From the NCBI GenBank assembly GCA_040904625.1, contig JBBDTC010000105.1, forward strand, positions 1-42,044: a stretch of DNA of 42,044 nt. Direction: 5' to 3'. The stretch comes from Gammaproteobacteria bacterium. GTDB taxonomy: Bacteria > Pseudomonadota > Gammaproteobacteria > Ga0077536. A program made the translations under genes and the position numbers. Of this stretch, positions 2,177 through 28,459 are shown piece after piece (position 1 is the stretch's first letter; every line of letters begins with the position of its first letter). The notes under the pieces are model-generated. The model ran no database searches. It was not told the origin of the DNA and saw only the letters and a list, made by a program, of their open reading frames with translations.

Positions 2177-2532
2177 GCGACCACCACCTCGGCCTCGAAC
2201 GGCTGCCACGGGAACGGCGGATCGAGCCGCACGCGATAAGTGCCGGGAATGCCGCTCTCGATCTCGACCTTGCCGTCATCGCAGACGCCGTGATCAATGT
2301 CGTTGACGAACACCCGCGTGCCCTCGGGCACGGTGGAGAGATCGGCAATCGTGGGGCGGGTCGCCGGCGCAGCGTCTTCCGTGCCTGGATTGACGACATA
2401 TTCCGTCAGGTCGTCGCAACCGACGCCCACCAGCACCGACTGCCCGGCCCTGGCCTGAAGTTCGACGTCTGACACCGAGCAAGTCCCCGATCGCAGAATT
2501 TTACCTGACGCGACATATACGGTGTACTTCAT
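2173..2532 (-). CDS. Hypothetical protein downstream of the host-specificity gene
   Basis: Complete 119-aa ORF, MKYTVYVASGK..., co-oriented and closely spaced with its neighbours. Confidence 0.5.
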   Translation of the reverse strand: MKYTVYVASGKILRSGTCSVSDVELQARAGQSVLVGVGCDDLTEYVVNPGTEDAAPATRPTIADLSTVPEGTRVFVNDIDHGVCDDGKVEIESGIPGTYRVRLDPPFPWQPFEAEVVVA

Positions 2533-2536
2533 ACTC

Positions 2537-5500: not shown

Positions 5501-5956
5501 GGCATAGGACGTGAGTTCATTGCCGCGGAACGCCCCGCCCGCGACCCAGCTTTCGTCCTGGCCGTCGACGAACACCTTGACCAGTCCCTCGCAAGGGTGG
5601 TCGGCAATCGCGATGCCGTCGACGAAGTGCTGGTTCTTGTCCCCGTGCGACTCGCCGTAGAACAGCGACCCGGCGGTGACGGCGCGGCCGACGATGAGCG
5701 ACTGCGGCACATCGGCGTCGATGCGGATGTCGAGTTCCACGCCGCCGGCGGGCTTCTGCTGCTTGGGCGCCAGCAGCTTGTTGGCGAGGTAGGACGCGCC
5801 GATCGACAGGGCTGCGGTGATGGCGGCCGTGCCGACAGCGGCGGCCGTGCCGGTCAGCCCGATGAAGCCGACGATGGCGGCCGATATCGGATCGGCCTGT
5901 GCCGGGGCCGAAGCGAAGATGAGCGCGGCGACCAGGGTGAGAACGAAGATCATCAT
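2537..5956 (-). CDS. Tail host-specificity / central fibre protein (J-like, about 1139 aa)
   Basis: The start MMIFVL overlaps the upstream stop (ATGA at 5953-5956). It has an N-terminal hydrophobic segment, an Fn3-like stretch (YWTAPEDADV...YEVRGRF), 10-aa tandem repeats, a CBM-like segment (NLFENGGFETG...SGSYALQ) and a distinct C-terminal domain. Confidence 0.75.
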   Translation of the reverse strand: MMIFVLTLVAALIFASAPAQADPISAAIVGFIGLTGTAAAVGTAAITAALSIGASYLANKLLAPKQQKPAGGVELDIRIDADVPQSLIVGRAVTAGSLFYGESHGDKNQHFVDGIAIADHPCEGLVKVFVDGQDESWVAGGAFRGNELTSYARDGREYLHFVFKDGSQTSADSFAVTHLASHPQRPWTSGFVGRGIAYVRTNTMYEPELTPSPMRWRFVVDGIALYDPRKDSTVSGGSGTHRFDDLSTHEFSANLPLIAYNMLRGIRVADHNGDPQHFYGLEDTPAEALPLDVWFAAMNEADVEVDGEPQFHGGAEITVDTEPLETLREIVKACDGRFVEVGGVYKLYVGAPGLPVLAFDDGMVRADEEDVFRPIRPLEQRINHVTGKYTSPIDGWVPKVAPPREFPGGVAIDGRRVSGNLDAPMIQSGNHAQRMMQQMLARARKERRHKLPLPPSCWGLEPGDIVEWTSERNGYVDKLFEVDAVEDYHDLSTTVSLTEVDETDYDWDAATDLIPEADGSLVTDRPDPKVVDGFSVEASLHPSDSGALRPAIRVYWTAPEDADVVAIHVEHRRPSQASQIAEASSSEPEAEELIILSGLQSLTDYEVRGRFQSREGYSTDWSLWMPVTTLDGRIGALDILDNAITAAKINDAAVTAAKLADEAVTLAKFASDLSPVRLVSSLPASGVAGETVYLTTDGKLYVWNGTAWSAEVADASVAAGSITETEIADDAISTPKLAANAVTAAKIAANTITASEIAADTITAGQIAAGAISTDELAAEAVTAAKIAAGTISADLIASKAITAEKLAIANFENLFENGGFETGVLDPSTANGGTGGTWSIASSEQRSGSYALQYDPTGQTANGVVQQEIEVSEGQSVYLEAWAKAGAGTANQARVRIAWFNSFASLITIDNSDDITPTSEYQKLTVKATAPTGAASARPALLVLNDGGDATTYFDDVYLREPFGGELIVDGSITGDHLDVNTITATNIAASTITTDEISVGGVETGNLDLEAATAAASAFTGGSDETVDRFTRLEAQSATITTASDYKVLIMFTAQFRKSSSDCRVTLYIRRDGTDIRTTAFVYLVHSGTEKRITYSLQYVDESPPDGSPTYYIEVQSSVDGEFHISARQLVLTTLKR
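3527..3805 (-). repeat. In-frame tandem repeats of about 30 nt (10 aa) inside the host-specificity gene
   Basis: The peptide motif (A/D)xxAITAxKIAA recurs about 9 times (AISTPKLAANAVTAAKIAANTITASEIAADTITAGQIAAGAISTDELAAEAVTAAKIAAGTISADLIASKAITAEKLA). A second short block lies at 3945-4040. Confidence 0.8.
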
Positions 5957-6357
5957 TCGACCCTGAATGCGCGCTTGGCGTGCGACAGCGGCACCTGCCC
6001 CATGCCCGCTTCTGTTCTGGCCGCGATCATATGCCCGCACACCACGCCGATGCCGTCGCGGCCCTGCTCATCCTCGACATGCGCCCAATCGCCGGAGCGG
6101 GCGTGGGCCAGCGGGATCTCCGGCAGCAGCGAGGCCGCCACGTCCCCCATGTCCCGCCAGCCCTCGTTGACCATGACGCGGCGCGCGCCGGTCTCGCTCG
6201 AATAGCGCCGCTTCAGCGCCGTCGCCGGGTCATGGCCGGTGATTGCCGCCGCACACGCCGAGGCGAAGTGCAGGCAGTCCGCCGAGCCCCACGCGAAGGA
6301 GCGCAGGCGCCAGGCGCGGTAGAGCGTCACGACGATGCGCTTGCGGTTGACCATCAC
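5953..6357 (-). CDS. NlpC/P60-like tail-associated cell-wall peptidase
   Basis: WGSADCLHFASACAAAITG (Cys) and GDWAHV...GIGVVCG resemble phage NlpC/P60 tail peptidases. Its position just before the J-like gene fits. Confidence 0.55.
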   Translation of the reverse strand: MMVNRKRIVVTLYRAWRLRSFAWGSADCLHFASACAAAITGHDPATALKRRYSSETGARRVMVNEGWRDMGDVAASLLPEIPLAHARSGDWAHVEDEQGRDGIGVVCGHMIAARTEAGMGQVPLSHAKRAFRVE

Positions 6358-10734: not shown

Positions 10735-11670
10735 TCACGTCAGCGTGATCGTGAACTGATCGTCGCCGGAGTCGAACTTCGGGCTCAAGCTGAGCGGCCA
10801 CTCGACGATGCCCTGCTGGTTCTCCAACCCGGTCATGCGCTGAACCTCGCACTTCGGCGCGGCGATGGTGGAGATCTTGCCCGCAGCGGTGCCGTGGGTG
10901 ATGCTCACAGCGACTTCCGTCTTGTCCTTGGCCGCGGCGAACGGGTCGAAGGTGGTGAGCGGTACCGCCTCGACACTGGCCGAGATCACCTCGGCGCGAT
11001 CGACGATCAGAATATCCTCGCGCCCGATGAGCAGCCGCGGCTGTACATCGTTGGCCAGGTCGAGCTGGAAGTTGCGCAGCACCAGGGACTCGCCCCCGAC
11101 CGTGAAGGCCGGCGTATTGGCGTGGCTGCCGACGATCGGCGCCTCGAAGCCCGACAGGTCGGGCGTGACGCGCGTCTCTTCCGACGGCGCGACATAGAGC
11201 CCGGTGAAGGTCCAGCGGATGCGCGGCACCCCTTGCGCCGGAATCTCGATGACGCCCGTTCCGCGGGCCCCCAACAGGACGTGCCGGGTGCCGCCCTTCC
11301 AGAAATAGAAGGTGGCGCTCTCGTGATCGTCCGACACCGGGTTGTAGACCACGTCGACGCCCGCCTGGGTCGTTTCGGCAAGCGCGCAGGCCCGCGCCAG
11401 CACGCCCCATTTGGGCGCCGTGCCGGCCGTGCCGGAGCCCACCAGCTCGGTGGCGCCTGAGAGCACCGCCCGGACGGCCGCCACCAGCGTGCCCTGGTTG
11501 CCGAGCTGGGCGAACTCGAGCTCGCGGCCAACGTCCTCGCCTTCCTGGGGGCGCAGCTGCACGTCCGTCATCAGCATGCCGTCGCTACCGACGGGCTCGG
11601 CGTCGGTGCCGTAGGTCGTCTCGATCTTCGCGAGTGCAATGGTCGAGCGCCACTTGATTGGGTCAGGCAT
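10735..11670 (-). CDS. Major tail tube protein
   Basis: 311-aa ORF directly upstream of the chaperone pair. The composition looks beta-rich. Confidence 0.6.
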   Translation of the reverse strand: MPDPIKWRSTIALAKIETTYGTDAEPVGSDGMLMTDVQLRPQEGEDVGRELEFAQLGNQGTLVAAVRAVLSGATELVGSGTAGTAPKWGVLARACALAETTQAGVDVVYNPVSDDHESATFYFWKGGTRHVLLGARGTGVIEIPAQGVPRIRWTFTGLYVAPSEETRVTPDLSGFEAPIVGSHANTPAFTVGGESLVLRNFQLDLANDVQPRLLIGREDILIVDRAEVISASVEAVPLTTFDPFAAAKDKTEVAVSITHGTAAGKISTIAAPKCEVQRMTGLENQQGIVEWPLSLSPKFDSGDDQFTITLT

Positions 11671-11839: not shown

Positions 11840-12276
11840 GAGGCGATCCTCAGCTGGTCCATGAGTGAAAAATCGATCTGGTAGATGACTGTGCCGGCGT
11901 TCACCGAAACGAGCCGCCCGCGCCGGGCGACGAACACGCCGATGGCATCGTCCGGCGCCCAGCCGGCGATCGCCGCCACGACGGCGTCCTTGAGCTGGTC
12001 GACCGTGGCGAGCGCCCGCCTGGCGCGCGGGTCGCCGGCGGCCTCGACGAACAGGATGACGCCGACGGTTTCGGTGGTGGACTGGCGGTAGAGCCCGGCC
12101 GCGGCGTCCGGGGTGCCACCGTCGAAGCCGAGCGGCACGACGAAGGCGGCGGGATTCCGCTGCGGCAGTGCCCCGGTGCTGACGAGGACGGCGAGGTCGG
12201 CCACCTCGTCGACTCGGCCGGTCAGCGCCGTCACCTCCGCCTCGAGGCGCGTCTTGATGTCGGAGACGAGCGTCAT
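11836..12276 (-). CDS. Neck / tail-terminator protein (Mu gp37-like)
   Basis: 146 aa starting MTLVSDIKTRLEAE, with an ATGA overlap at 12273-12276. Its position after the G homologue fits. Confidence 0.5.
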   Translation of the reverse strand: MTLVSDIKTRLEAEVTALTGRVDEVADLAVLVSTGALPQRNPAAFVVPLGFDGGTPDAAAGLYRQSTTETVGVILFVEAAGDPRARRALATVDQLKDAVVAAIAGWAPDDAIGVFVARRGRLVSVNAGTVIYQIDFSLMDQLRIAS

Positions 12277-12782
12277 GGTGCGGCCCCGGTCCCGGCTTCG
12301 TCGTCCGCGATCCAGTCGCGGGCGATCGCCAGGATCTCGGTCTCGTCGTCCTCGTCGATGCCAAGGAACGGCCGGGCCGGGATGGTGACCTGCTGCTTGG
12401 TGGCCCACTGGCCCCCCACCTTGAAGCGCAGGCCCTTCGATGTCTTGGCCGTGATGGTGCCGCCCAGCTGGTGGATGGCGGCGTAGAGCACGTTGGTGCC
12501 GACCTCGACGCCGGACTCGGTGGCGTTGTGGGTTAGCGACTGTACGAGGATCCCCGAAACACGCAGTGTCGGGCGGCCATCTCCAAGGAGTTCCCGAATG
12601 GCCGGCGGCCAGGGGCTGCCGTCCGGGCCCTGCTTGCGCTCGAAGCGACGCTGGGTCGACACGACCAGGCGCGCGCCGATGTTGTCGAACATGCCGCGCG
12701 GGTTTGAAGCCCGTTCGACATAGCCTTGAAGGGCCTCCAACGCCTCGTCCTGGCCGGTGACCTGGATGCGCGCCCCGTCCAT
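12273..12782 (-). CDS. Virion morphogenesis protein (Mu G / P2 S family)
   Basis: The signature VGTNVLYAAIHQLGG...IPARPFLG is typical of the family. Confidence 0.7.
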   Translation of the reverse strand: MDGARIQVTGQDEALEALQGYVERASNPRGMFDNIGARLVVSTQRRFERKQGPDGSPWPPAIRELLGDGRPTLRVSGILVQSLTHNATESGVEVGTNVLYAAIHQLGGTITAKTSKGLRFKVGGQWATKQQVTIPARPFLGIDEDDETEILAIARDWIADDEAGTGAAP

Positions 12783-13321: not shown

Positions 13322-13927
13322 TCAGGTCGCTCCGCCGACCGTTCCGCCGCGCGCATAGGTCAGGAGCTCGACCGTCAGGTTCGGCTCCGCCAACAGCGCG
13401 GCGATCTGCTGACAAGTGAAACGGTCGATCGGATGCTCGACTGCCGCCTTGGAGTGCCGCATCCCGGCCCGCCGGAATCCGTCACGCTTGGCCGCGATGC
13501 GAACGTGTGTCGGGGAGCCGGACTGTGTCCCTACGTTCGGCGAGGCGACCGCCCCGTCCGACGTTCCGCCACCGGTGCTGGGGGCCTCGCGAGCCGTACC
13601 AGAGCTCCCCTCTGGGGTATTGGTGGAGGCGGGCTGCTCATCCGCCTCCTTCGGTTCAGCCGCGGCAGGCGGACCATCGACCGCCACAGCCTGAGGAGGC
13701 GTTTCCGAATTGACCTCGGGCGGCGCGCCGGGAACACTCTCTGCCGCGTAGAGCACGGCCTGCGGGCCCCAGTCGTCCATGCGGCTCGCCGGCAGCAGGT
13801 CGGCGACGTCGACCGGCACCTCCGTGCTCGCGAAGCCGGCGATCTGCGCGAAGCTCGTCACGCCCCTGGCGCGCAGCTCCTCGGCCGTCTTCGGCCCGAT
13901 ACCCTTGATGCGTGTCAGATCGTCCAT
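13322..13927 (-). CDS. HhH-domain protein with a FluMu/HI1506-like C-terminal domain
   Basis: N-terminal helix-hairpin-helix (IKGIGPKTAEEL), a low-complexity linker, and the C-terminal stretch VRIAAKRDGFRRAGMRH...TCQQIAALLAEPNLTVE. Confidence 0.6.
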   Translation of the reverse strand: MDDLTRIKGIGPKTAEELRARGVTSFAQIAGFASTEVPVDVADLLPASRMDDWGPQAVLYAAESVPGAPPEVNSETPPQAVAVDGPPAAAEPKEADEQPASTNTPEGSSGTAREAPSTGGGTSDGAVASPNVGTQSGSPTHVRIAAKRDGFRRAGMRHSKAAVEHPIDRFTCQQIAALLAEPNLTVELLTYARGGTVGGAT

Positions 13928-13945: not shown

Positions 13946-14020
13946 TGGTAGCGGGGGCCGGGTTCGAACCGGCGACCTGCAGGTTATGAGCCTGCCGAGC
14001 TACCGCTGCTCCACCCCGCG
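13946..14020 (-). tRNA. tRNA-Met (anticodon CAT), initiator-like
   Basis: The reverse complement is CGCGGGGTGGAGCAGCGGTAGCTCGGCAGGCTCATAACCTGCAGGTCGCCGGTTCGAACCCGGCCCCCGCTACCA. It folds as a 75-nt cloverleaf with a 7-bp acceptor stem, GAGC/GCTC D stem, GCAGG/CCTGC anticodon stem, loop CTCATAA, GCCGG/CCGGC T stem, and an encoded CCA. Confidence 0.85.
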
Positions 14021-14037: not shown

Positions 14038-14931
14038 TCAGGCCAGCCAGGGAACGACGAGCAGCTCCGCGGTGCCCTTCCACTCATTGGTCTCGCCGCC
14101 CGAGGCGTTCTCGGAGTTGAGGATCTTGCGTGCGGCGCTCTCCAGCGACGGCGGCACGACGAGCAGGTTGGGCATGAGGCCCAGCGGCCGGCCGTAATCG
14201 CCCTTCATGCCGCTGAGCGCGGCCCGCGCCGTGGCGTAATTGGCCGCGTTGAGCGTCTGCTTGGAGCCCCAGGCGAACTGCCAGAAGCCGAAGCCCACGT
14301 TGCCGCGGGCGTCCGCGCCGTAGACGAACTCCTTGTTGGTGAAGACGTTGTCGTCGGTCAGCTTGTCCTTGGCGACGAACTGGAAGTCGCGGCGCTTCTG
14401 CAGGATCACCGGCTTGAGCACGCGGGAAGCGTCGATGAGGAACCAGGGCGTGCCGGCCCCGCCGTCGGTGTTGGCGACCGAAGTCTCCGCGCCGTTTGCG
14501 TCGAGCACCGGGTGGTCGGTGTCGAAATAGGGCTGGCCGTCATAGGCGAGCTCGGTGAAGCCGTTTTTCAGGTGGGCGAAGGCGAGCGTGTCCCAGTGCG
14601 CGCCGGTCGACTGGCCCATTTCGGTGAACAGCGGCGTGTAGATGCCGAGGTTGTCGGTCTCGATGTCGTCGCGGTCGACGCCGATGGTCAGCTCCCACGG
14701 CTTCTCCTTGATGGCATAGTCGTGCTGCTGCAGGTTCTGCACGGCGCGCGGCCCGATCCATTCGCGGACGTTGGGGATCTTGCCGAGCCAGCCGTACTTC
14801 TGCTCCTTGGCGGACGACGGGACGATGGTGGCGATGCGGGTGTGCATCGTGGAGGCCATCGCCAGCCCGCCCTGGAAGCTGGTGGAGAAACCGACGCGCA
14901 GGGCGTCGAGGTTGGCGGCATTGACGAGCAT
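14038..14931 (-). CDS. Major head subunit (Mu gpT family)
   Basis: 297 aa, with ...KYGWLGKIPNVREWIGPR... and ...LLVVPWLA typical of Mu-like gpT. It lies after the protease/scaffold gene. Confidence 0.8.
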   Translation of the reverse strand: MLVNAANLDALRVGFSTSFQGGLAMASTMHTRIATIVPSSAKEQKYGWLGKIPNVREWIGPRAVQNLQQHDYAIKEKPWELTIGVDRDDIETDNLGIYTPLFTEMGQSTGAHWDTLAFAHLKNGFTELAYDGQPYFDTDHPVLDANGAETSVANTDGGAGTPWFLIDASRVLKPVILQKRRDFQFVAKDKLTDDNVFTNKEFVYGADARGNVGFGFWQFAWGSKQTLNAANYATARAALSGMKGDYGRPLGLMPNLLVVPPSLESAARKILNSENASGGETNEWKGTAELLVVPWLA

Positions 14932-14995: not shown

Positions 14996-15412
14996 TCAGA
15001 CGATGCCCAGCTTGACCCAGACGCCGTTGTCGTCGACCTGGACGACCTTGCCGGCGACGGAGCGGGCACCGGTGTCGTCGGTCTTGGCCACCGTCTGGTC
15101 ATCGACGATGTAGCAATCGTCCCCGATCTCGGCGGCGGTGATCTCGTCGGCGCCGGCGGAGTTGGCGAACTGGAAGACGCCGCGCCGGACCCTCACCTTG
15201 ACGTCGCCGGCGGCACCGTCGGTGTTGTCCACCCGCTCCTCCGCCCGGCCCACGGTGACGAGGGTGGTGGCGGTCGCGCCAGGCGTGGCGAAGCCGGTGG
15301 CGCTCAAGGCCACGATCGCCCCGGCATAGATCAGAGCAGCGGCGGCCACGCCGTACGATTCTACGTCGCCGTCAGCGCGCGGCGTGTTGCGGTCAGCAGT
15401 CAGGGCGGGCAT
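14996..15412 (-). CDS. Head decoration-like protein (DUF2190-like)
   Basis: 138-aa beta-rich ORF between I/Z and T. Its start shares one nucleotide with the I stop (TGATG). Confidence 0.45.
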   Translation of the reverse strand: MPALTADRNTPRADGDVESYGVAAAALIYAGAIVALSATGFATPGATATTLVTVGRAEERVDNTDGAAGDVKVRVRRGVFQFANSAGADEITAAEIGDDCYIVDDQTVAKTDDTGARSVAGKVVQVDDNGVWVKLGIV

Positions 15413-16014
15413 CAGGCGGCCTCCTCGGCATCAGCGGCCTCGGCCGCCAGGGTTTTGGCGTAAGCTCCCGGGTCGATCCCGAGGAGCTTGGCGGCGGTGC
15501 GGTGCTCGGCGTGGAGCGAGACATTGCCGTCCTTGTCCTTCGCCGGCGGCGCGATCGTCGCGCCCGAGTGGCCGAGGATCGGGAACGCGCCGATCTCCTT
15601 CTCGACGCGCGCCGGGTCGGCCGCGTGCATGGCGATGTAGTGGTCACGCAACGGCTTGACGCCGACGCGCCCCCTGGCGATCTCGCCGTCGACGAAGGCG
15701 GTGGCCTTGTCCGTGGCGCCGGCGGTACGCAGCTCGTTGAGCTGGGTGGTAACGGTGGCGAGCTCCGCCTGCAGGGCGGTGACGGCTTCCCCGTGCCTGT
15801 CGGCGCCGGACCCATTCGCGGCGAGCGTCGTGACCGCATTCAGCACGGCATCCTGGTCGGCGTCTTCCTTGAGGCCGGCGGCCTTGGCGATCGGCGCCAG
15901 GGCCGACTGCAGCGACGTCGAACCCTTCAGCTCGCCGACGGAGTGCAGCACGGCGGCTTCGTCGGCATCGGCGGCAAGCCCGAGGGCCTCCCGCAGCTTC
16001 GTGAGCAAGTCCAT
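15412..16014 (-). CDS. Nested scaffold protein (gpZ-like), in-frame internal start
   Basis: Internal ATG at 16012-16014 (MDLLTKLREALGL...) preceded by a GGAGGA Shine-Dalgarno sequence at 7-nt spacing. The C-terminal half is helical and Ala-rich. Confidence 0.5.
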   Translation of the reverse strand: MDLLTKLREALGLAADADEAAVLHSVGELKGSTSLQSALAPIAKAAGLKEDADQDAVLNAVTTLAANGSGADRHGEAVTALQAELATVTTQLNELRTAGATDKATAFVDGEIARGRVGVKPLRDHYIAMHAADPARVEKEIGAFPILGHSGATIAPPAKDKDGNVSLHAEHRTAAKLLGIDPGAYAKTLAAEAADAEEAA

Positions 16015-16584
16015 CTTGGAATCCTCCAGTTCGGAGTTGAGCGCGGCCAGGCCGCGCAGGTTTGGGCGGTTGGTTAGCGCGGCCCGCAGGATGCCGGTCA
16101 CGCGATGATGGCTGGTGTGGGTGATTGCCGGAGAGATGTGCCGGTAGGCCCGGTCGGACATCAGCGCCTTGCCGGCGGCCGTCCATTCGACCCGCCCCCA
16201 GATGCCGTCGTCGCGCGCCTGCAGATCCACGATCCAGCCGCGCGCCGGCGACGGGCCGCCCTGGGGCGCGGCGAGATCGGTGGAATGGTTCTCGTCGATC
16301 GGCAACCGTCCGCCGGCGGCCTGGAGGCTCGATGCGGCGAGCTGGGCGGCGTCGGTGACGCGATAGGGACCGCGGCCGTCGACAGTGATGACCATGTCGG
16401 CCGGCAGCAGATGGACCCACTCGGGCGCATCACGATGGCCATCCGCGCCGGCGGCGACGTCGGGCAGCGCCACGGCCTGGCATAGCGCGGCCCGGTCGGT
16501 CGCCCGATCGGTCACCACGTCGGCCGCGGCGTGCAGTGCCACCTGGAGGGCGGGGAGGCCGGGGATTGCGTTGAAGCGCGTCAT
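15412..16584 (-). CDS. Head maturation protease / scaffold (Mu gpI family)
   Basis: WVHLLP...GRGPYRV...LPIDENHS...GWI..L..R.DGIWGRVEWT..G matches Mu I-type proteins. I chose the ATG at 16582-16584, because the longer GTG-started ORF (16635) would read through the upstream palindrome. Confidence 0.75.
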   Translation of the reverse strand: MTRFNAIPGLPALQVALHAAADVVTDRATDRAALCQAVALPDVAAGADGHRDAPEWVHLLPADMVITVDGRGPYRVTDAAQLAASSLQAAGGRLPIDENHSTDLAAPQGGPSPARGWIVDLQARDDGIWGRVEWTAAGKALMSDRAYRHISPAITHTSHHRVTGILRAALTNRPNLRGLAALNSELEDSKMDLLTKLREALGLAADADEAAVLHSVGELKGSTSLQSALAPIAKAAGLKEDADQDAVLNAVTTLAANGSGADRHGEAVTALQAELATVTTQLNELRTAGATDKATAFVDGEIARGRVGVKPLRDHYIAMHAADPARVEKEIGAFPILGHSGATIAPPAKDKDGNVSLHAEHRTAAKLLGIDPGAYAKTLAAEAADAEEAA

Positions 16585-16618
16585 GTGGGCAATATCGGGA
16601 TTGCAGGGGCTGCCCATA

Positions 16619-16638
16619 CCGGTGACGCGCGTCACCGG
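16619..16638. promoter_or_regulatory. 20-bp perfect palindrome CCGGTGACGCGCGTCACCGG upstream of gene I (putative late-activator site)
   Basis: Its centre is about 44 bp upstream of the I start codon. A near-identical palindrome (one mismatch) sits about 45 bp upstream of the endolysin start. Both are followed by the block ATCCCGATAWTSCCCAC. Confidence 0.5.
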
Positions 16639-16768
16639 TATTCACTCTCCAGGCAGGTGGTGATCTGGGCTGACTGGGTGAAGCCAGCACCCGCTTCAAC
16701 CACCCGCCAAGGAGATGCCCGATGCCGATCTTCGTCTGAATCTCAGATTGCCCGAATGACCTCTACCC

Positions 16769-16796
16769 GAGGCCCGGCCCCCAGCCGGGCCTCTTT
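16769..16796 (+). terminator. Strong GC hairpin terminator at the island / I-operon boundary
   Basis: GAGGCCCGGC-CCCCA-GCCGGGCCTC followed by TTTG on the plus strand, with an A-tract on the other side. It lies between the stop of the 392-aa gene and the PI region. Confidence 0.6.
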
Positions 16797-16829
16797 GCGT
16801 CCGGCACGTGGCCGAGGGAAGCGTTCGAC

Positions 16830-18008
16830 CTAAGGCTTTGCCAGCAGGCGCGCCACCAGCGCTGACAAGGAAGCGTCAGGTGCTCCCTCATCCTTCACAA
16901 TGCCGTCCGCCGACGGCCGAAACAGCGGAGCCAGGACGAGTGCCCGATCGCTCCTATCGAGTTCCTGCTCCTTGACCAGGGCAAGGAACGTCTTGACCAT
17001 CGCGATCCGCTCCAGCGCATCGATCCGCAGGTGGTGAGCGCTCAGGAAGAGGCGCACCAGGATGCGCCCGATCCAGAACAGGATCGTTGTGCCCAGGACA
17101 AAGAGTGCAGCGGAGACGATGAGCAGATTTGGACTTTGCGTCGGCTCCGTCGCGATTAGGAGGGGGATCACCTCAACTCCCGCTCCTATGCCGGCCAGCA
17201 GGGCGATGAATGCAAATGCGACCACAGACCAGGTCAGCCACCAACGCGAGGTGGCGTAGAGGGTGGCCTGTTGTTTCCAATAGTCGACAGCCGCCGCCAG
17301 TTCCATATGGGATGCATAGAGCTCGTTAGTGGAATTGATCCTGTCGATGCTTTCCTGGATCTTCGTCACCCAGGACTCCCGAAGCTCCTTTTCGAGCGCA
17401 ACCAGACGAGCCTGGCTTGCCTCGAGCTGCTCTTCCAATTCCTTCTTCTGGGCCGCCGCTTCCGATTGTGCATTGGCCAGGTGGTCCGCGGATATGTCGG
17501 CGATCCGTTTTAAGGAGCGCCAGATATCGTCCGGTGTGTTCTGGCCCACGCCCCCGTCCAGCATGGCAGCCTCGACCGCGCCACGGATGACCGCCAGGGG
17601 AGCTCGACCGCTATCAAAACGCAGCTTACCCATGCAGGCGGCGACTGCGCATGCAGCAACGTCGTGCAGATCCGCCTGCACGAGGCGGTCGGCAACTTGC
17701 CAGATTGGATCCGTCGACATCGGGTACCGCTTCCGCTCGTAGAGTTCTTTGAGCCGATCCGTCACCTGCTTTTCGTGTTCGGGAGTCTTCTGCCACTGGC
17801 GGATGTCCCCCATGGCCGCGTCCAAGAGGCCACGGAACTCCTCCTGAAAGTTGTCGGTGTAGTCGCGGACCGTTTGGACACGCCGGTGGCGTATCCATTC
17901 CCACGCGTCCATCTCCTCCTGCATCCACCGTTCTGCGGCGGCGGGTGATTCGAACACGAGTGGGGCCGCCCGACCGACATCGATGGAAAGCGCTTTGTTC
18001 TGCGACAT
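16830..18008 (-). CDS. Accessory membrane protein, 392 aa (soluble N-domain, coiled coil, two TM helices, amphipathic tail)
   Basis: ATG at 18006-18008 with a GGGGGA Shine-Dalgarno sequence. Coiled coil QKKELEEQLEASQARLVALEKELRE; TM helices WWLTWSVVAFAFIALLAGIGAGV and LLIVSAALFVLGTTILFWIGRILV. Its composition is lower in GC than the phage genes. Confidence 0.75.
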   Translation of the reverse strand: MSQNKALSIDVGRAAPLVFESPAAAERWMQEEMDAWEWIRHRRVQTVRDYTDNFQEEFRGLLDAAMGDIRQWQKTPEHEKQVTDRLKELYERKRYPMSTDPIWQVADRLVQADLHDVAACAVAACMGKLRFDSGRAPLAVIRGAVEAAMLDGGVGQNTPDDIWRSLKRIADISADHLANAQSEAAAQKKELEEQLEASQARLVALEKELRESWVTKIQESIDRINSTNELYASHMELAAAVDYWKQQATLYATSRWWLTWSVVAFAFIALLAGIGAGVEVIPLLIATEPTQSPNLLIVSAALFVLGTTILFWIGRILVRLFLSAHHLRIDALERIAMVKTFLALVKEQELDRSDRALVLAPLFRPSADGIVKDEGAPDASLSALVARLLAKP

Positions 18009-18204
18009 TGGTCCCCCGCGGTTGCTCCGTCCTGAATAGCCCATGCTGCGCGATCAAGCACCCCATCGAAGGGGTTTTAGGCAGCCGAGGCGGGGCCGGG
18101 CGTGCGAATCGGTTCATCGTCCGGCGGTGGCATTTCGGCGTTAATCATATCCTCAGGTAGTAGATAGACTATAGCATCGGGGAAAACGCCGTCGGGGGAC
18201 TGGC

Positions 18205-19392
18205 ATGAACCGGCTGTACTTCGGTGACAATCTCGATTGGCTGCCGCAAATAGAAATCGGCAGCGTCGATCTCGTGTACCTGGATCCGCCCTTCAATCGG
18301 CAGGCCAGCTTCAACATCCTCTACAGATCTCCGAGCGGCGATCAAACTGCCCAATACAGGGCCTTCGAGGACACCTGGCGGTGGGGCCCGGCGAGCGACT
18401 ATGCCTTTGCGCATGTGAAGCAAAGCGGATCACCAGCATTCGACACCCTGGTTTCGCTGAACAACTACATGCAGAAGAGCGATCTCATGGCCTACCTGAC
18501 CATGATGACCGCGCGGCTGCTCGAGCTGCGCCGGGTGCTGAAGCCGTCCGGCAGCTTGTTCCTCCATTGTGACGCCAGCGCCAGCCACTATCTGAAGATC
18601 ATTCTGGACCAGATCTTCGGGGCCGGCACCTTCCGCAACGAGATCATCTGGCGGCGGTCGATGGGCAAATCGCTCATGACCCGCCGCCTCCCGACGAACC
18701 ACGACGTCATCCTGTTCTATTCAGGTGACGAGGCCGTCTGGAACGGGGATCACGCGTTCGCAGCCTATGACGTCGACGACCTTCCCACGAAGGCCGCAGC
18801 AAAGTACGCCCAGAAGGATGCGGACGGGCGACGATATCAGCTCACGAGCCTGATCAATCCCAATCAGAACAGGCCCAATCTGACGTATGAATTCCTTGGC
18901 GTCACAAAGGTCTGGCGCTGGACGCAGGAGCGAATGCAGGCGGCGCACGAAGCAGGGCTGATCGTTCAAACTGCGCCGGGTCGCGTGCCGCGGTTCAAGC
19001 GATATCTCGATGAACAGCGGGGCCTGCCTCTTGACGACGTCTGGACAGACATCCCGCCGATCAATTCGCAGGCGCAGGAGCGGCTCGGCTATCCGACGCA
19101 GAAGCCATTGGCGCTTCTCGGGCGCATCATCAAGCTGGCCACGAATCCGGGTGACGTAGTGCTGGATCCGTTCTGTGGGTGCGGTACAGCAGTCGAGGCG
19201 GCACAGAAGCTCGGGCGGAGATGGATTGGAATAGACGTGACCGTGCTCGCGATAGATCTTGTCGAGAAGCGGCTACGCCGACTGAAACTCGAGCGCGATG
19301 CTGATTACACGGTCGAGGGCATCCCACTGGATGTGGACGGTGCCCAAGCCTGTTCGAGTCTGATCCGCACGCGTTTCAGCTTTGGGCTCTAA
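18205..19392 (+). CDS. Beta-class N4/N6 DNA methyltransferase (catalytic domain intact, 3' end out of frame)
   Basis: Motif IV DLVYLDPPFN precedes motif I VVLDPFCGCGT. GGGGGA Shine-Dalgarno sequence before the ATG at 18205. The last approximately 14 codons (CSSLIRTRFSFGL) look like out-of-frame read-through. Confidence 0.8.
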   Translation: MNRLYFGDNLDWLPQIEIGSVDLVYLDPPFNRQASFNILYRSPSGDQTAQYRAFEDTWRWGPASDYAFAHVKQSGSPAFDTLVSLNNYMQKSDLMAYLTMMTARLLELRRVLKPSGSLFLHCDASASHYLKIILDQIFGAGTFRNEIIWRRSMGKSLMTRRLPTNHDVILFYSGDEAVWNGDHAFAAYDVDDLPTKAAAKYAQKDADGRRYQLTSLINPNQNRPNLTYEFLGVTKVWRWTQERMQAAHEAGLIVQTAPGRVPRFKRYLDEQRGLPLDDVWTDIPPINSQAQERLGYPTQKPLALLGRIIKLATNPGDVVLDPFCGCGTAVEAAQKLGRRWIGIDVTVLAIDLVEKRLRRLKLERDADYTVEGIPLDVDGAQACSSLIRTRFSFGL

Positions 19393-19958
19393 CTCTGGTG
19401 GACGGTCAGCCGCGCGAAGGGGGAAAGCGCGGTGCGGACAGAGGTATTGATGGCCTGCTGTACTACATGGAGGACGCCAAAACGGCCAGGCGAGCGATCA
19501 TCTCCGTGAAAGGAGGCAGGAATATCCACGCCGAGCACGTCCGCGATCTGATCGGCACCATGCATACGCAGGGCGATCAGCTCGGGCTGATGATCACGTT
19601 GCACAACCCCACCGATGCAATGGACAGGGCGGCAAAGGAAGCGGGCACGCTGGAGGCTTTCAACAAGCCACGCCCAGCGGTTCAGATCTTTACAGTGGCG
19701 CAGCTTCTTGCTGGCCTCAGGCCGAACCTGCCGCCCGTGCTTGACATCATCGCAACTGCGGCAGCGGCCAGACGGGCCTCTGCAAAGAAGGCTCCGAAAG
19801 CCCCGACGCCCGCGGACATCCGGAAGTCTCCTCCACTCAAACTGCCAATCACCGGCGGCCGATCTCGCGAACTTCAAGACGTCTTGGACATAGACGATCC
19901 TCTGCTGGTTCAGCAGCAGGATGACGCGGCAGCAAAGCGGGGCCGCCGGCGCGCATAG
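19305..19958 (+). pseudogene. Mrr-type PD-(D/E)xK nuclease domain displaced into another frame from the methyltransferase
   Basis: The frame is open from 19305 and reads ...LFESDPHAFQLWALTLVDGQPREGGKRGADRGIDGLLYY...AIISVKGG (D...GIDG...xVK motif). It has no convincing Shine-Dalgarno sequence of its own; the listed ORF starts at the GTG at 19398. Confidence 0.6.
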
Positions 19959-19993
19959 GCTGTCTGACCGATCTTGATGCCTCGCCGCCATGA

Positions 19994-20105
19994 TAATCCC
20001 GCCGTCAAAGGGGTTTTGAAGGGGCTGGGGGGCCAAAGGCGGCTCCGGTGCATCCACCGGGCCTCCAAGCCGCCCGGAAGCCGCTGTGGGCGTTCTGTGC
20101 GGCTC
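19994..20105 (+). repeat. Copy X of an intergenic repeat of about 110 bp (34-bp perfect core)
   Basis: TAATCCCGCCGTCAAAGGGGTTTTGAAGGGGCTG (19994-20027) is identical to 24409-24442. About 75 further bp align imperfectly. Confidence 0.8.
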
Positions 20106-20216
20106 GCCCGGAGGCGGTACTTCGCCTCGCATCCCATCACAATCGGCCGCTTTGATGGACCGCCTGCCACACAGGTCGTATGGTGGTCCTGCGACCATCG
20201 CGGAAAGGAGTCGACA

Positions 20217-20438
20217 ATGCCGTTCGCTCCGTACCAATCGAGCTTCAACTCCGATTCTCTCAGGATTCTTCAAGAGGCATTCGACCAGGCCTGGGCCGAG
20301 GTGGCGGCCTCGCCCAGCGTCACACTCGACGAGCAGGCCGCGCGCAACATGATCGCCAATCGGATCGTGCACGCCTGGCGCGACCAGGGCGAACGCGACC
20401 CGGAGCGGCTGAAGCAGCACGCTGTCGAGGGGCTGTAA
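20217..20438 (+). CDS. Small 73-aa helical protein of the accessory island
   Basis: AAAGGAG Shine-Dalgarno sequence 6 nt before the ATG at 20217. MPFAPYQSSFNSDSLRILQEAFDQAWAEV... resembles small orphan proteins common in Rhizobiales. The longer ORF-track version (19974) lacks a ribosome-binding site. Confidence 0.6.
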   Translation: MPFAPYQSSFNSDSLRILQEAFDQAWAEVAASPSVTLDEQAARNMIANRIVHAWRDQGERDPERLKQHAVEGL

Positions 20439-20462
20439 ACCTGGGCGTCCGTCTGGCGCGGC

Positions 20463-21179
20463 CTAATCGCCCCGCCGGCGGGCGAGCTCCTCGCGCAGAT
20501 GCTCGTCCAGCGGCGCGCCGGGCCGATAGGCGAAGCCCGGGTCGATCCCCTGCGGCACGCGCACGGTGGTCGGACCTTCGGCGGTATTGATGCGCCGCTC
20601 GACCAGCGGCGACTCCGGGGTCTCCGATACCGTCAGTCCGAAGCGCTCCACGTCGCGGGCGTTCAGCGACTGGGCCAGGCAGCGGCAGTTCCAGCCGTTG
20701 GGCGGAAAGTGCGTCTGCCACCACGGGTCGTCGGCCGGCAGCACTGTATCGTGCCAGGCAGCGTGCTGCGGCCTGGTGCGCGCATCCATCACCGCGACAT
20801 AGCGGATGTAGGGGCGCTGCTCCTTCACCCGCTGGATCTGCTCCCAGCGCCCCGCCGCATAGGCCATGCGCAGGTTCGTCTGGAAGATCACCCGGGACCG
20901 CCAGTTGCGCCCTCCCTTGTAGCTCCAGCCGTACCGCGCCACGATCTCATCGAAGTCCTCGCGGAACTGGGCCAGCGTGCGGCCCTCCTCGAGCGCCGCC
21001 AGGACGGCGGCATGGAAGTCCGCGATAAGGTCCTGGCTTTGCGCCCCGGCGACCACGAAGGCGGCCGAATGCATCTCCTGCCAGATGTCGGTCCAGGTCC
21101 GCGTCGGGATGTCGAGCTTGCGGCGCAGGAACTCGATCGCCTCGGTCGGGTTGGCCGCGAAGGGCTGGGCCTCAGGCAT
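20463..21179 (-). CDS. Mu F-like minor head / morphogenesis protein (gp30 family)
   Basis: The signature RTRPQHAAWHDTVLPADDPWW...PPNGWNCRC is typical of the Phage_Mu_F family. Confidence 0.8.
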   Translation of the reverse strand: MPEAQPFAANPTEAIEFLRRKLDIPTRTWTDIWQEMHSAAFVVAGAQSQDLIADFHAAVLAALEEGRTLAQFREDFDEIVARYGWSYKGGRNWRSRVIFQTNLRMAYAAGRWEQIQRVKEQRPYIRYVAVMDARTRPQHAAWHDTVLPADDPWWQTHFPPNGWNCRCLAQSLNARDVERFGLTVSETPESPLVERRINTAEGPTTVRVPQGIDPGFAYRPGAPLDEHLREELARRRGD

Positions 21180-22731
21180 CGGCGCTCGCGATCTCGTCGC
21201 GCCCCGCTAGATCGGCGAACAGCATGGCGAGCCCCATCGCCGTCGCCAGCTGATCGGAGGGGAGCCCAAGGTCGAGGATCGCCTCGCGTACCTCCTCGAG
21301 GCTCTGAGCGACGTCGATCAGCCCGCGAATCGTGTCGATCATCTCATCCATAGCCGGCTGCGCGTGCGCTTCGGCCGCCGCGGCCAGGCCGTCCAGCCCG
21401 TCGCGCGGCGGCTTCACCTCTTCCGCCTGCAGCGCCTGCTTGCCCTCCTGCGGGGCGGGTCCGGGGAGTGGGGCAACCGGCGCCGCCCGCGCCTCCAGGA
21501 CCTCGGCATCGGGATCCGGATCCGGCAGCCCGAACTTGTCGCGGATCACGCTCGCCTCGACGCGCAAGCCGAGCGGCACCAGCTTCGCCAGCGACTCGGC
21601 GAGCAGCTTCAGGTCCTCTTCCTCGGGCCGGCCGATGCGCAGCCGCGGATAGACCTTCTGCGGCCCGAACTCGAGATCGATCCACGGCCGCACCAGGTCA
21701 CGGTTGAGCACGGCCGCAAGCGCTTTCGCGTCGGCCCGCTCGATGTCCTCCTGCACTTGGCGGTGCTCCTGGCCGACGGCATGGCCGCCGGCGATCGCGT
21801 CCGTCGTGGCGGTCTGGCCCAGCACCGCCTTGGAGACCTGCCGGTCGAGCCAGTCGGCACGGCGCTCGTAGAGATCCATGGAAGAGCCCACCGACTTCGA
21901 CTCGATAAACTCGATCAGCATCGACTCGGGGATGATCGCCGCGCAGTCGCCGGCGATGTTGGCCACCGCCCTGAACAGGGTGTCCTTGTCGGCCTCGGTG
22001 GCGCCGGCGCCGTATTTCCCGACGCGGATCGGCTGGCCATAGGTCTGGGTGAAGATCGCCCAGTCCCTGAGGGTGAAGGCCTTGAACATCCACGACCAGG
22101 CGGCCAGCCGCGCGATGCCCGATCGCACCGGCAATCCCGACTTGGACCGAATGATCGCCTGGATGAACTTGAAGGCGGGCAGCGGCTGGTCGCCCTCGTC
22201 GGTGCGCAACAGCGGCGTGGTGCCGTCATGCCGGTCGAAGCGGAACCAGCGCGGGTCGCGCCACTCGAGGCGGGCGGGGCGCCACTGGCCGGCGCTCGTG
22301 TCCCAGATGATCTCGGTGAGGCTCGTCCCCTTGCCGATGGCGTCGAGGATATCGAATATCTCGTCCTGCAGCTGGTCGCGCAGCAGCCAGTCGCGCACCA
22401 TGTCAGCGTGGCGCACGTGCTCGGGCGCGTCCGACGCCGCGTCCACGGTGATGTCGATCTGCGCCACCGAGCGCCGGCGGGTGCCGAGCACGCCGGCATA
22501 ATGCAGGTCGCGCTCCTCGATCTGCTCGGCGAGCTCAAAATAGCGCAGCGGCTCGCCCTGGTCGGCATCGCGCAGGATGTGCGCTAGGCGCAAGGGGTTG
22601 AGGCCGTCGCCGGGATAGCCGGAGATGACCGAGCGCACGCCGGTGATCGTCGGTCCGGCGACTTCCTCGGTGAGTACCTCGCGCCGGATCGGCTGGCCAT
22701 CGGGGCCGAGCAGCTGGGGTTTGGTCGCCAT
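21172..22731 (-). CDS. Portal protein (Mu gp29 / DUF935 family)
   Basis: The start MATKPQLLGPDG shares one nucleotide with the TerL stop (TGATG at 22729-22733). 519 aa in the conserved position. Confidence 0.8.
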   Translation of the reverse strand: MATKPQLLGPDGQPIRREVLTEEVAGPTITGVRSVISGYPGDGLNPLRLAHILRDADQGEPLRYFELAEQIEERDLHYAGVLGTRRRSVAQIDITVDAASDAPEHVRHADMVRDWLLRDQLQDEIFDILDAIGKGTSLTEIIWDTSAGQWRPARLEWRDPRWFRFDRHDGTTPLLRTDEGDQPLPAFKFIQAIIRSKSGLPVRSGIARLAAWSWMFKAFTLRDWAIFTQTYGQPIRVGKYGAGATEADKDTLFRAVANIAGDCAAIIPESMLIEFIESKSVGSSMDLYERRADWLDRQVSKAVLGQTATTDAIAGGHAVGQEHRQVQEDIERADAKALAAVLNRDLVRPWIDLEFGPQKVYPRLRIGRPEEEDLKLLAESLAKLVPLGLRVEASVIRDKFGLPDPDPDAEVLEARAAPVAPLPGPAPQEGKQALQAEEVKPPRDGLDGLAAAAEAHAQPAMDEMIDTIRGLIDVAQSLEEVREAILDLGLPSDQLATAMGLAMLFADLAGRDEIASADA

Positions 22732-24389
22732 CAGATGCTCCCTCTCAATCCTACCCCATAGGGCTGGCGCCACCAGGCGCGGCTCTCGGAGCCGTCCTCG
22801 TCCGGCCCGCCGGCGGCGCCGCCGCCGGGCTGGACGGTCGCCGAGCGATAGCCGTATTCGTGCCATTGCATGCGCGATGCGAAGTGGGCGAGCGCCAGCG
22901 CGATGGCATAGTCGCCGTGGCGCTTCTTGCCCTTCTCGCCCTCGCGCGTCGCCGGCACCATCGGGATGCCCCTGATGGTCTTGACCAGGCGCAGGTCGGA
23001 CAGGTGCTCGGCGTCGGGCGCAATCGCGATCGCGTCATCCTCGAAGGCCACCTTCAGCGGCGGCATGTGCAGGCGATACCACTCCTGGGAGAACTTGATC
23101 GCCCAGACGAGGCCGCCGCTCGTCTCGTCCTCGCGCAGCCCGAACTTGCGGCCCATGTCTTCGGCCACCGTCCAGCCCATGCCCGTGGCGTCGAAGGCCG
23201 CGCCGACGAGGCGCGAGCGCACCCGCTCCAGCACCTTGGCCACGATCTGTTTCTGCTCGTCGCCGGGCACGCCGCGCAGCTCGAAGGTGAGGGCGCTGCG
23301 CCGCCGCAGCGGCTTCTCGATCGACAAGAGTTTGCCGACCGACAGGTCCGCCACGCGGGCGAAGTCGAAGCCGAAGGCATAGAGGGGGGCGAGGTCGAGC
23401 CCGTCGAGCGCCGCCTCCAGCTCCTCCATGAAGGGCGCGAGCAGCGACTGGCGCTCCAGTTCTGGCCGCTGCAGGAAGTCCGGCGGTAGCTCGAGCCTGA
23501 GGATCGGCGCGTCGGCCGTCATGCGCGCCTCGATCAGCGGGCCCGACAGCCAGGCGCCCGAGCCCAGCGCCGGCACGCAGAACAGCTCCTCGTCGGCCGC
23601 CTCGCCGTAGAAGTCGATGATGTCCTGGCGCCAGGCGGCCTCGCTTTCCGCCGTCCACTCCGCCCCCGTCACCAGGCAGATGCGCTGGTAGAGCCCCTCC
23701 ATCAGCGCCTGGTCGAAGTCGATGCGCATGTGGTCGTACTTCGACCGGCCGCCGAGGATGTCCTGGACCAGCTCGTTGAAGTGGTTTTCGGAGCCGTTGT
23801 GGGTCGAACACACGACCACCTGGCCGCCCCACATGAGGAAGGCGAGAGCGGCCTTCAAAAGCTCCTTGAGCGAGTCGACGAAGGCGGCCTCGTCGATGAT
23901 CACCAGGCCCTGCTTGCCGCGCAGGGTGCGCGGCGCCGAAGACAATGCCAGCACCTCGAAGCCCGACGCGAAGCGGATCCGGAACGCCTGGATGGCGCGG
24001 TCGCCGGTCTCGTCGCTGTCGTCGAACAGGAACTCCTCGGCCGCCAGGGCCGCCATGTTGTAGGCCCGGGCCCACATGGCGCAGGCGTCGACGAACTCCC
24101 GCGTCATCTCCTGCGAGTAGGAGATGTACATGGCGTCCATGCCGCCGGCCGCCTTGGACCGGGCGGCGCGCAGCACCGCATGCGCCCCGAGCCCCCAGGT
24201 CAGCCCGATGCGGCGCGACTTCTCCACCACCAGCACGCGGGTGCCGGCGGAGTCGAGCAGCCCCACGGCGCGCTGCTGATAGGGCAGCAGCAGGTCCGGC
24301 AGCCCGACCTGCTCGATGACCTGGTCGAGGCCCGCGATCGACTCCCACCGCAGCGCCTCCCAGTCGGCTTTCGACAGCGGGGCGTTCAT
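22731..24389 (-). CDS. Terminase large subunit (Mu gp28-like)
   Basis: Walker-like VVEKSRRIGLTW and LVIIDEAAF, with a C-terminal nuclease region. The ATG at 24387-24389 is preferred over the GTG at 24396-24398. Confidence 0.8.
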   Translation of the reverse strand: MNAPLSKADWEALRWESIAGLDQVIEQVGLPDLLLPYQQRAVGLLDSAGTRVLVVEKSRRIGLTWGLGAHAVLRAARSKAAGGMDAMYISYSQEMTREFVDACAMWARAYNMAALAAEEFLFDDSDETGDRAIQAFRIRFASGFEVLALSSAPRTLRGKQGLVIIDEAAFVDSLKELLKAALAFLMWGGQVVVCSTHNGSENHFNELVQDILGGRSKYDHMRIDFDQALMEGLYQRICLVTGAEWTAESEAAWRQDIIDFYGEAADEELFCVPALGSGAWLSGPLIEARMTADAPILRLELPPDFLQRPELERQSLLAPFMEELEAALDGLDLAPLYAFGFDFARVADLSVGKLLSIEKPLRRRSALTFELRGVPGDEQKQIVAKVLERVRSRLVGAAFDATGMGWTVAEDMGRKFGLREDETSGGLVWAIKFSQEWYRLHMPPLKVAFEDDAIAIAPDAEHLSDLRLVKTIRGIPMVPATREGEKGKKRHGDYAIALALAHFASRMQWHEYGYRSATVQPGGGAAGGPDEDGSESRAWWRQPYGVGLRGSI

Positions 24390-28439: not shown

Positions 28440-28459
28440 CCGGTGATGCGCGTCACCGG
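28440..28459. promoter_or_regulatory. Palindrome CCGGTGATGCGCGTCACCGG upstream of the lysis operon (putative late-activator site)
   Basis: One mismatch from the copy at 16619-16638. It is followed on the minus strand by AATCCCGATAATCCCCAC, which contains a GATAAT -10-like hexamer. It lies directly downstream of the Mor/C gene, as Plys does in Mu. Confidence 0.5.

Follow-up and report, generated by a model that had tools for sequence, protein, structure and literature searches.

The 42,044-nucleotide contig JBBDTC010000105.1 from the assembly GCA_040904625.1 of a gammaproteobacterium, which in its whole length is referred to as the window, consists almost entirely of a Mu-like transposable prophage on the minus strand. 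Between the prophage genes for the F-like head morphogenesis protein and the I-like protease/scaffold protein lies an island of about 3.8 kb (16640-20462), which is the subject of this analysis (Table 1). The island harbors three genes. The abiZ-like gene encodes a protein of 392 amino acids (aa) and is located on the strand of the late genes. The second gene encodes a DNA methyltransferase (MTase) that is followed by a restriction endonuclease-like (REase-like) domain, and is split into two open reading frames (ORFs). The third, p73, encodes a protein of 73 aa. As stated in the original prediction, which was made from the letters of the sequence and regarded the island as a candidate prophage defence or exclusion cassette, the MTase gene and p73 are positioned on the plus strand, opposite to the late operon.

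Table 1. Position of the island features and of prophage genes in the window.
Feature	Position	Strand	Remarks
abiZ-like gene, candidate abortive-infection/superinfection-exclusion effector	16830-18008	-	392 aa; DUF6161, PADLOC AbiZ
Gene for beta-class N6/N4 DNA MTase with C-terminal Mrr-like (NA-iREase1-like) domain, split	18205-19961	+	ORFs 18205-19392 and 19398-19958
Frameshift in the MTase gene	19349/19350	+	One base missing, GCC CAA GC / CTG TTC GAG (AQA/LFESDPH)
p73, helical, convergent with F	20217-20438	+	73 aa; AAGGAG 7 nucleotides (nt) 5' of ATG
Perfect palindrome, 26 bp, ATACCGGTGACGC/GCGTCACCGGTAT	16616-16641		About 30 nt 5' of the I start
GC-rich hairpin, candidate terminator/insulator before the I regulatory region	16769-16796		33 nt 3' of the abiZ-like stop
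Divergent intergenic region, abiZ-like gene/MTase, presumed promoter site	18009-18204
Intergenic stretch, MTase/p73	19962-20216		Holds motif CAAAGGGGTTTTGAAGGGG (about 20002-20033)
Mu F-like head morphogenesis gene, right flank of the island	20463-21179	-	238 aa, short form; Phage_Mu_F 1.4e-21
Mu I-like protease/scaffold gene, left flank of the island	15412-16635	-	Likely ATG 16584; Mu-like_Pro 6.9e-51
Portal gene	21172-22866	-	Portal_Mu (Pfam)
Major head gene	14038-14931
G-like gene	12273-12782		Phage_tail_S
MuA-like ORF	35993-38182

Insertion between the F and I genes

The organization of the region was compared with that of 160 loci encoding relatives of F (80 genomic and 80 IMG/VR loci, with the F protein of the window as query), in which the portal, F, I, the decoration-like protein, the major head protein and G were mapped by tblastn. 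F and I could both be placed in 88 of these loci. In 35 of them G is located between F and I, and the spacer was measured from G. The spacer has a median of 176 nt; it exceeds 1 kb in nine loci and 3.5 kb in two. Where F shares at least 55% identity with the query, the F-I distance is at most 791 nt in 29 of 30 loci. Relatives of the abiZ-like protein, the Mrr part and p73 are absent from all 160 Mu-like loci, and the MTase occurs in the slot of none; its sole matches are short ones on the upstream side of the portal gene. Since the F-I spacers are short and the island genes are missing across the relatives, the comparison characterizes the island as lineage-specific accessory cargo and not as conserved phage structure, in line with the accessory insertion that had been proposed.

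The flanking genes were likewise named correctly at first reading: Pfam assigns them to Phage_Mu_F and Mu-like_Pro, and a match to Phage_tail_S places G elsewhere. In this lineage G is found several kb downstream, so that F and I are directly adjacent. Of the phages that have been isolated, RS1 of Rhodovulum and RC1 of Rhodobacter are nearest (57% portal identity), and the nearest prophages, with F identities of up to 76%, belong to Hyphomicrobiales. The short form of F (about 230-240 aa) is shared by the window with L010-L012, L014-L016 and L019, and a long form (about 430 aa) also occurs among close relatives (compared: L009, L013, L025 and L026). The short F of the window is a trait of the lineage and no truncation caused by the island.

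The island also differs from the prophage in composition. Its GC content is 61.6% (16797-20462) versus 68.7-68.9% for the remainder, which is the lowest value of any 3.7-kb segment in the 42 kb. Segments of 500 nt between 16501 and 20000 range from 0.58 to 0.65, versus about 0.70 on either side. The GC content at third codon positions (GC3) was related to 35 phage genes with a mean of 0.884 and a standard deviation of 0.053. It amounts to 0.74 in the abiZ-like gene, 0.75 in the MTase part and 0.69 in the REase part (z -2.5 to -3.7), and to 0.82 in p73 (z -1.1), which is nearer to phage composition. The less GC-rich character of the 3.8 kb was thus recovered in the sliding-window analysis, together with a deviant GC3 of the large genes.

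Cargo recurs in the slot between F or G and I. Of the nine large spacers present in relatives, eight sit 8-17 GC points under their flanks. Four examples of the slot cargo of the relatives were identified. A Vibrio prophage carries a full-length defence reverse transcriptase of type 5 (Drt5, 3e-178; L046:11745-13256), the second example is a KAP NTPase (PDC-S20, 7e-89; L084:9931-11508), and in a Pseudomonas prophage a protein with a RelA/SpoT domain is encoded next to an S-type pyocin that has a colicin DNase domain (L088:10915-14721). The fourth is an SNase-domain protein (L071:8763-9626), which unlike the other three shows no marked GC drop with respect to its flanks. Several ORFs of the large spacers lack a family match, and phage RS1 carries three hypothetical ORFs between its G-like and protease genes. 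In Mu-like phages of Pseudomonas aeruginosa the same position is known as RGP G, a region of low GC content that harbors anti-CRISPR genes (PMC4378225). Both the published locus and the cargo of other Mu-like prophages agree with the view that a moron hotspot is present here. The junction known as the anti-CRISPR locus of Pseudomonas Mu-like phages also takes up cargo now and then in Mu-like prophages of alpha- and gammaproteobacteria, and it could be mined for new systems. In Mu, gene I heads a late transcription unit of its own (promoter P_I), i.e. it marks an operon boundary. Such a boundary at I would account for the tolerance of insertions at this place.

A search of the island for direct repeats at its flanks and for a transposase or integrase gene was negative, and repeats spanning its boundaries occur only at chance level. 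A discrete mobile element, such as an insertion sequence (IS), a transposon or an integrative element, was rejected due to the lack of a recombinase or transposase gene and of boundary repeats. Arrival without a recombinase or repeats is usual for morons. RGP G of the Pseudomonas Mu-like phages likewise has no recombinase or repeat signature (PMC4378225).

The palindrome upstream of I is a phage sequence, and the inserted DNA has its left limit there. In relatives a different palindrome, CTGACAnnTGTCAG (followed by GGTTA), is located at the same place, together with additional CTGACA half-sites. The core of the palindrome of the window, TGAYGCGCGTCA, has eight matches in the phage versus 1.2 expected, among them 28444-28455 and 11166-11177. 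The palindrome is probably a binding site of a phage-specific late regulator. Between the MTase gene and p73, the reverse complement of CAAAGGGGTTTTGAAGGGG agrees at 26 of 32 positions with the F-I intergenic region of L009, the closest relative (z 4.6). A AAGGGGTTTT(GAAGGGG) motif is present on either side of the MTase gene (18056-18078 and 19995-20033) as a 23-nt direct repeat with 78% identity, and similar TTTTGAAGGGG/TTTAAG motifs were observed in the F-I spacers of other relatives. On this weak evidence, CAAAGGGGTTTTGAAGGGG may be left over from the ancestral spacer between F and I, and the MTase cassette may have landed inside that spacer.

Two regulatory signals had been proposed for the island, a strong hairpin terminator that insulates it from the I promoter region and an AT-rich divergent promoter region between the abiZ-like and MTase genes. 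The hairpin has a perfect GC stem of 10-11 bp, with -33/-30 kcal/mol in a 66-nt context (z -1.8/-2.4). Its stem is real, but its role as a terminator is doubtful, as the minus strand has no U-tract, the plus strand has CUUUG only, and the terminator scan made no call. In relatives, a hairpin is positioned immediately 3' of the F stop. The AT-rich character of the divergent promoter region did not hold up: the GC content of the region is 61.2%, which equals the island mean, and the promoter scan detected no sigma-70 consensus in 15300-21300. Shine-Dalgarno-like GGGGGA motifs are located 4-5 nt 5' of the start codons of the abiZ-like and MTase genes. A search of the island against Rfam gave nothing above threshold, the sole match being a sub-threshold Xoo2 (E 0.3), and the intergenic stretches of the island contain no further credible small ORFs.

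The abiZ-like gene

The abiZ-like protein matches the Pfam family DUF6161 (3.4e-15, 56.5 bits, cutoff 27) and the AbiZ model of PADLOC (PDLC02354, 4e-16), the latter at model positions 194-396 of 398 only. The AbiZ model is also matched by all 60 homologues of the protein that were tested. The family is large, with about 3000 representatives at 50% identity in an exhaustive HMMER search at E <=0.001 and 1444 at 1e-10. Its members are mostly about 400 aa in length, and the best is 37% identical to the abiZ-like protein, which retains all 11 invariant residues of the family as well as the nearly invariant ones. The lactococcal protein WP_032398699.1, encoded on plasmid pUCCL629C adjoining abiA, is a full-length AbiZ (PADLOC 2.6e-166, positions 1-397). 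Alignment of the family profile with this protein by hhalign gave a probability of 97.9% and an E value of 4e-13 over 190 columns (residues about 198-387), which span a helix preceding the transmembrane (TM) segments, both TM helices and the conserved tail. Based on these alignments the abiZ-like protein is placed in the AbiZ superfamily as a distant relative of AbiZ rather than an orthologue.

The earlier description as a two-TM coiled-coil protein was confirmed by hydropathy and structure prediction. Two TM segments are located near the C-terminus (256-288 and 292-322). The AlphaFold2 (AF2) model, with a pLDDT of 89, consists of an N-terminal helical domain, a 129-residue helix that leads into TM1, followed by TM2 and a tail, with continuous helices at residues 158-286 and 293-346. 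Hydropathy and charge distribution suggest that both termini are cytoplasmic. No structure in PDB or BFVD matched at E <=0.001, as is also the case for AbiZ according to a review from 2026 (PMC13064643). PHROGs and NCBIfam gave nothing for the protein, and no match was obtained by tblastn against 50,697 phage genomes.

According to the review, AbiZ is reported to cause premature lysis by acting with the phage holin (PMC13064643). Its phenotype is early lysis of infected cells with a reduced burst (Durmaz and Klaenhammer 2007, per PMC13064643). The neighborhoods of DUF6161 genes were analyzed for seven homologues and 17 IMG/VR viral contigs or loci. Gabija together with SIR2, PDC-S02 nucleases and, nearby, a PemK toxin were found in their company. 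In L093 (547-7241), as well as in L095, the DUF6161 gene is positioned 17 nt 3' of a gene for a 992-aa Type III Mod-like methyltransferase and 5' of a gene for an 808-aa Ppl-like PHP/ATPase, an arrangement that may represent an operon in a defence island. In the Mu-like IMG/VR contig L107 (1299-4607) the DUF6161 gene follows 3' of an S24-type repressor gene in the same direction; it belongs to the immunity region rather than to the head module. A function of the abiZ-like gene as an abortive-infection or superinfection-exclusion effector is probable.

Several observations weigh against this assignment. The homology to AbiZ is confined to the C-terminal half of the protein, and the N-terminal halves gave no alignment with either PADLOC or hhalign. 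One DUF6161 homologue is found in a housekeeping setting, between rplU/rpmA and a rhodanese gene, which implies that not all members of the family need be defensive. The promoter scan revealed no recognizable promoter. Due to the frameshift in the MTase gene (see below), part of the island appears to be under no strong selection, unless the sequence contains an error. Furthermore, the abiZ-like gene has the orientation of the late genes. Transcription that continues past F could express it in the lytic cycle of the prophage itself, which would be awkward for a pure exclusion gene.

The same orientation is in accordance with a function in the prophage's own lysis, where the AbiZ-like protein would act as a timing factor or holin accessory and not in exclusion. 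The gene lies directly 3' of F in the late-operon direction with no convincing terminator after F, and AbiZ is thought to speed lysis together with the phage holin (PMC13064643). However, a lysis function is at odds with the absence of the gene from all related Mu-like loci, with its foreign composition, and with the occurrence of the family in cellular defence islands and at varied positions in unrelated phage types. It is thus considered very unlikely, and a function in exclusion of other phages is preferred for the abiZ-like gene.

The split methyltransferase gene and p73

The MTase gene gave Pfam matches to N6_N4_Mtase (PF01555, 1.4e-45, 156 bits, cutoff 26.7), Mrr_cat (1.5e-07) and NA-iREase1 (3e-06). 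Motif IV, DPPF (residues 27-30), precedes motif I, FCGCGT (residues 323-328), which is the order of the beta class. Both are conserved in 117 homologues, and the MTase motifs are complete upstream of the frameshift. In the DNA alignment with the homologues in L001 and L006, the frameshift position is the sole gap that is not a multiple of three. The protein continues in plus frame 3 as LFESDPHAFQLWALTLVDGQPREGGKRGADRGIDG, and its domains are split between frames 1 and 3. The alignment identifies the two ORFs as one gene that is broken by a 1-nt deletion. This corroborates the beta-class MTase with a frame-displaced Mrr-type domain, for which motif order, Pfam and reading frames agree. The reconstructed protein has a length of 583 aa, the truncated ORF of 395 aa. 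More than 8000 homologues of the reconstructed protein were found, the best of which is 78% identical and originates from a Bradyrhizobiaceae genome. Among the matches listed, nearly all of the 119 best (the window ORF excluded) are uninterrupted proteins with a length of 535-645 aa; a few are shorter. Programmed frameshifting or phase variation was rejected, as the site has no slippery heptamer or repeat tract and the listed homologues are nearly all one ORF. The frameshift is either a plain mutation or a sequencing error.

The REase-like domain contains the motifs GADxGxDG and SVKGG, which are conserved to at least 90% across the 117 homologues. This conservation indicates that the domain is under selection and, together with the fusion of Mrr_cat to a methyltransferase, would fit a single-polypeptide restriction-modification enzyme that excludes, or once excluded, unmethylated DNA. 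The catalytic triad D ... (D/E/Q)xK is not present, however. The sequence reads GIDG ... S-V-K, and at least 90% of the family have a serine in place of the acidic residue. NA-iREase1, an 'inactive REase' family, matches the domain about as well as Mrr_cat. PHROGs and NCBIfam gave nothing for the Mrr part. In the window the domain is in addition out of frame and has lost its first helix. The Mrr-like nuclease domain is thus probably inactive, and no other nuclease ORF that could be the cognate partner is present in 16640-20462. Moreover, undamaged homologues are carried by lytic or temperate actinophages, in which self-restriction is unlikely. A single-chain restriction-modification enzyme is accordingly the most improbable of the explanations considered.

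The two nearest homologues examined (L001:9767-11517 and L006:7755-9039) are intact, solitary and chromosomal. Each is followed by a convergent IS1595-family transposase gene and a small HTH_3 gene, which suggests that the methylase travels with or beside an element of this family. Intact members are furthermore present in 22 Streptomyces phages, in the Mycobacterium phages Dori and Mask, and on plasmids. The family is very common, usually solitary, and both phage- and chromosome-borne.

The stop codons of p73 and F are only 24 nt apart. The strong Shine-Dalgarno sequence attributed to p73 is indeed present. Five homologues with 55-82% identity and 73-104 aa were found, all in non-phage contexts, and the AF2 model (pLDDT 86) shows four short helices. 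There was no match in Pfam, PHROG, NCBIfam, PADLOC or PDB, and no PDB or BFVD structure at E <=0.001. By its sequence features p73 is classified as a real, small conserved gene. Tandem paralogues of the p73 family occur in soil metagenome contigs (L090:576-1326 and L091:224-858).

The damaged MTase fusion raises the question of whether the island is decaying, horizontally acquired DNA that has no present function and hitch-hikes toward loss. In addition to the frameshift, the empty promoter scan is compatible with decay, as are the lack of slot cargo in most relatives and the clustering of the island proteins, each of which forms a singleton cluster restricted to this window. In contrast, the abiZ-like ORF runs through 392 codons without a break, has kept the invariant and nearly invariant residues and yields a confident model. 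p73 is intact as well, with its strong Shine-Dalgarno sequence and conserved homologues, and even the MTase retains a complete catalytic domain before the frameshift. Decay of the whole island is for these reasons regarded as unlikely.

A further question is whether the three genes belong together. They are adjacent and divergent, and could constitute a new methylation-linked abortive-infection system, in which the MTase-REase-like protein marks or senses DNA, the AbiZ-like protein is the two-TM lysis effector and p73 is a regulator. The close spacing of the DUF6161 gene and an N6_N4 methyltransferase gene in L093 and L095 is in favor of such a system. The neighborhoods of two MTase, seven DUF6161 and two p73 homologues and of the 17 viral DUF6161 loci were therefore checked, and none of the pairs of island genes recurred. 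When about 20 distinct DUF6161 loci were searched with a hidden Markov model of the MTase family, a beta-class MTase was found nearby only in the L093/L095 type, apart from one weak distant hit. The methylase in L093/L095 belongs to another, Type III-like, subfamily. MTase and p73 homologues have unrelated neighbors, such as the IS1595 transposases beside the solitary methylases, and the similarity of the island DNA to other loci ends at gene ends, i.e. it covers single genes only. The broken MTase gene also speaks against a joint function. A single conserved three-gene system was rejected, as the homologues occur alone or with other partners, and cooperation of the three proteins in an undescribed system is judged highly improbable. 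The original prediction that no described system could be named is correct with regard to the combination of the three genes, which is not recurrent, but not for the abiZ-like gene, which matches AbiZ in both PADLOC and hhalign.

Proposed explanation and comparison with known systems

The island is best explained as a mosaic accessory ('moron') insertion of three independent cassettes, with the abiZ-like gene as the likely functional exclusion cargo, an interpretation that is held with moderate confidence. The slot would lie at the junction of the transcription unit that ends with F and the late unit that starts with I, where cargo spares the head genes, and three gene-sized cassettes would have been acquired there separately. 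In a lysogen, the abiZ-like product would reside in the inner membrane with its termini in the cytoplasm. By homology to AbiZ, it might detect a late event in the cycle of an infecting phage, then permeabilize the membrane or cooperate with the holin of the invader, so that the cell would lyse early and the infection would be aborted. The lysogen would thereby exclude competing phages. The divergent N-terminal domain could be the part that provides specificity or serves as a sensor. The MTase would most plausibly methylate DNA, either as protection of the genome of phage or host against restriction, or in an epigenetic role. In its truncated state it may be a decaying gene or a 395-aa enzyme that functions without the C-terminal domain. 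Of the defence or exclusion cassette initially proposed, the AbiZ-family gene remains, but the three genes are not one cassette or system.

The characterized AbiZ proteins are so far restricted to Lactococcus, and the island places a gene of the family in a Mu-like prophage of a high-GC host. The DUF6161 family is large and present in defence islands and several phage types. Its link to the AbiZ superfamily and the generality of the slot between F or G and I in Mu-like prophages are results that can be reused. The family may have a modular design, in which the two-TM part at the C-terminus is a widely distributed effector of premature lysis that is joined to variable N-terminal sensors. As a whole, the locus is an ordinary accessory island and not a new defence system, and the current understanding stands.

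Two further features of the prophage lie outside the island. A tRNA-Met (CAT) is located within the head module on the minus strand (13946-14020; Rfam 60.9 bits, ARAGORN concurs), between the major head gene and a 201-aa ORF (13322-13927). A second GC dip (0.55-0.60) at 2501-3500 coincides with the 3' part of a 1167-aa ORF (2537-6040), a pattern typical of the exchanged receptor-binding end of a tail fibre gene.

Among known systems, lactococcal AbiZ (pTR2030 type; WP_032398699.1) resembles the abiZ-like gene in its homologous C-terminal half and as a single gene for about 400 aa on a mobile element. It differs in that the identity is about 19% and limited to the C-terminal half, with approximately 190 N-terminal residues that do not align, and in that the carrier is a plasmid of a Gram-positive host and not a prophage in a high-GC host. 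The MTase has counterparts in Streptomyces phage SarahRose (gp48) and Mycobacterium phage Dori (gp42), which share the N6_N4 MTase with a REase-like domain (48-56% identity over residues 1-513) and the absence of an adjacent cognate endonuclease gene. In contrast to these phage-borne solitary MTases, the copy in the window is split, and its closest kin (71-78%) are chromosomal in Bradyrhizobiaceae and Mesorhizobium, beside IS1595 transposases.

With respect to position, the island corresponds to the RGP G/anti-CRISPR locus of the D3112, DMS3, JBD30 and PaMx73 group (PMC4378225). Both lie immediately 5' of the protease/scaffold gene, have a low GC content relative to the phage, vary in content among relatives, and show no recombinase or repeat signature. 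However, the cargo of the island is neither anti-CRISPR nor aca, G is not located between F and I, and the island is larger (3.8 kb) with two genes on the opposite strand. The defence hotspots of P2-like phages and P4-like satellites are similar in that a fixed slot between conserved genes harbors anti-phage systems that differ from relative to relative. The Mu-like slot is distinguished from these hotspots by the phage lineage and the flanking genes, and it is filled in about 10% of the loci (9 of 88 with more than 1 kb).

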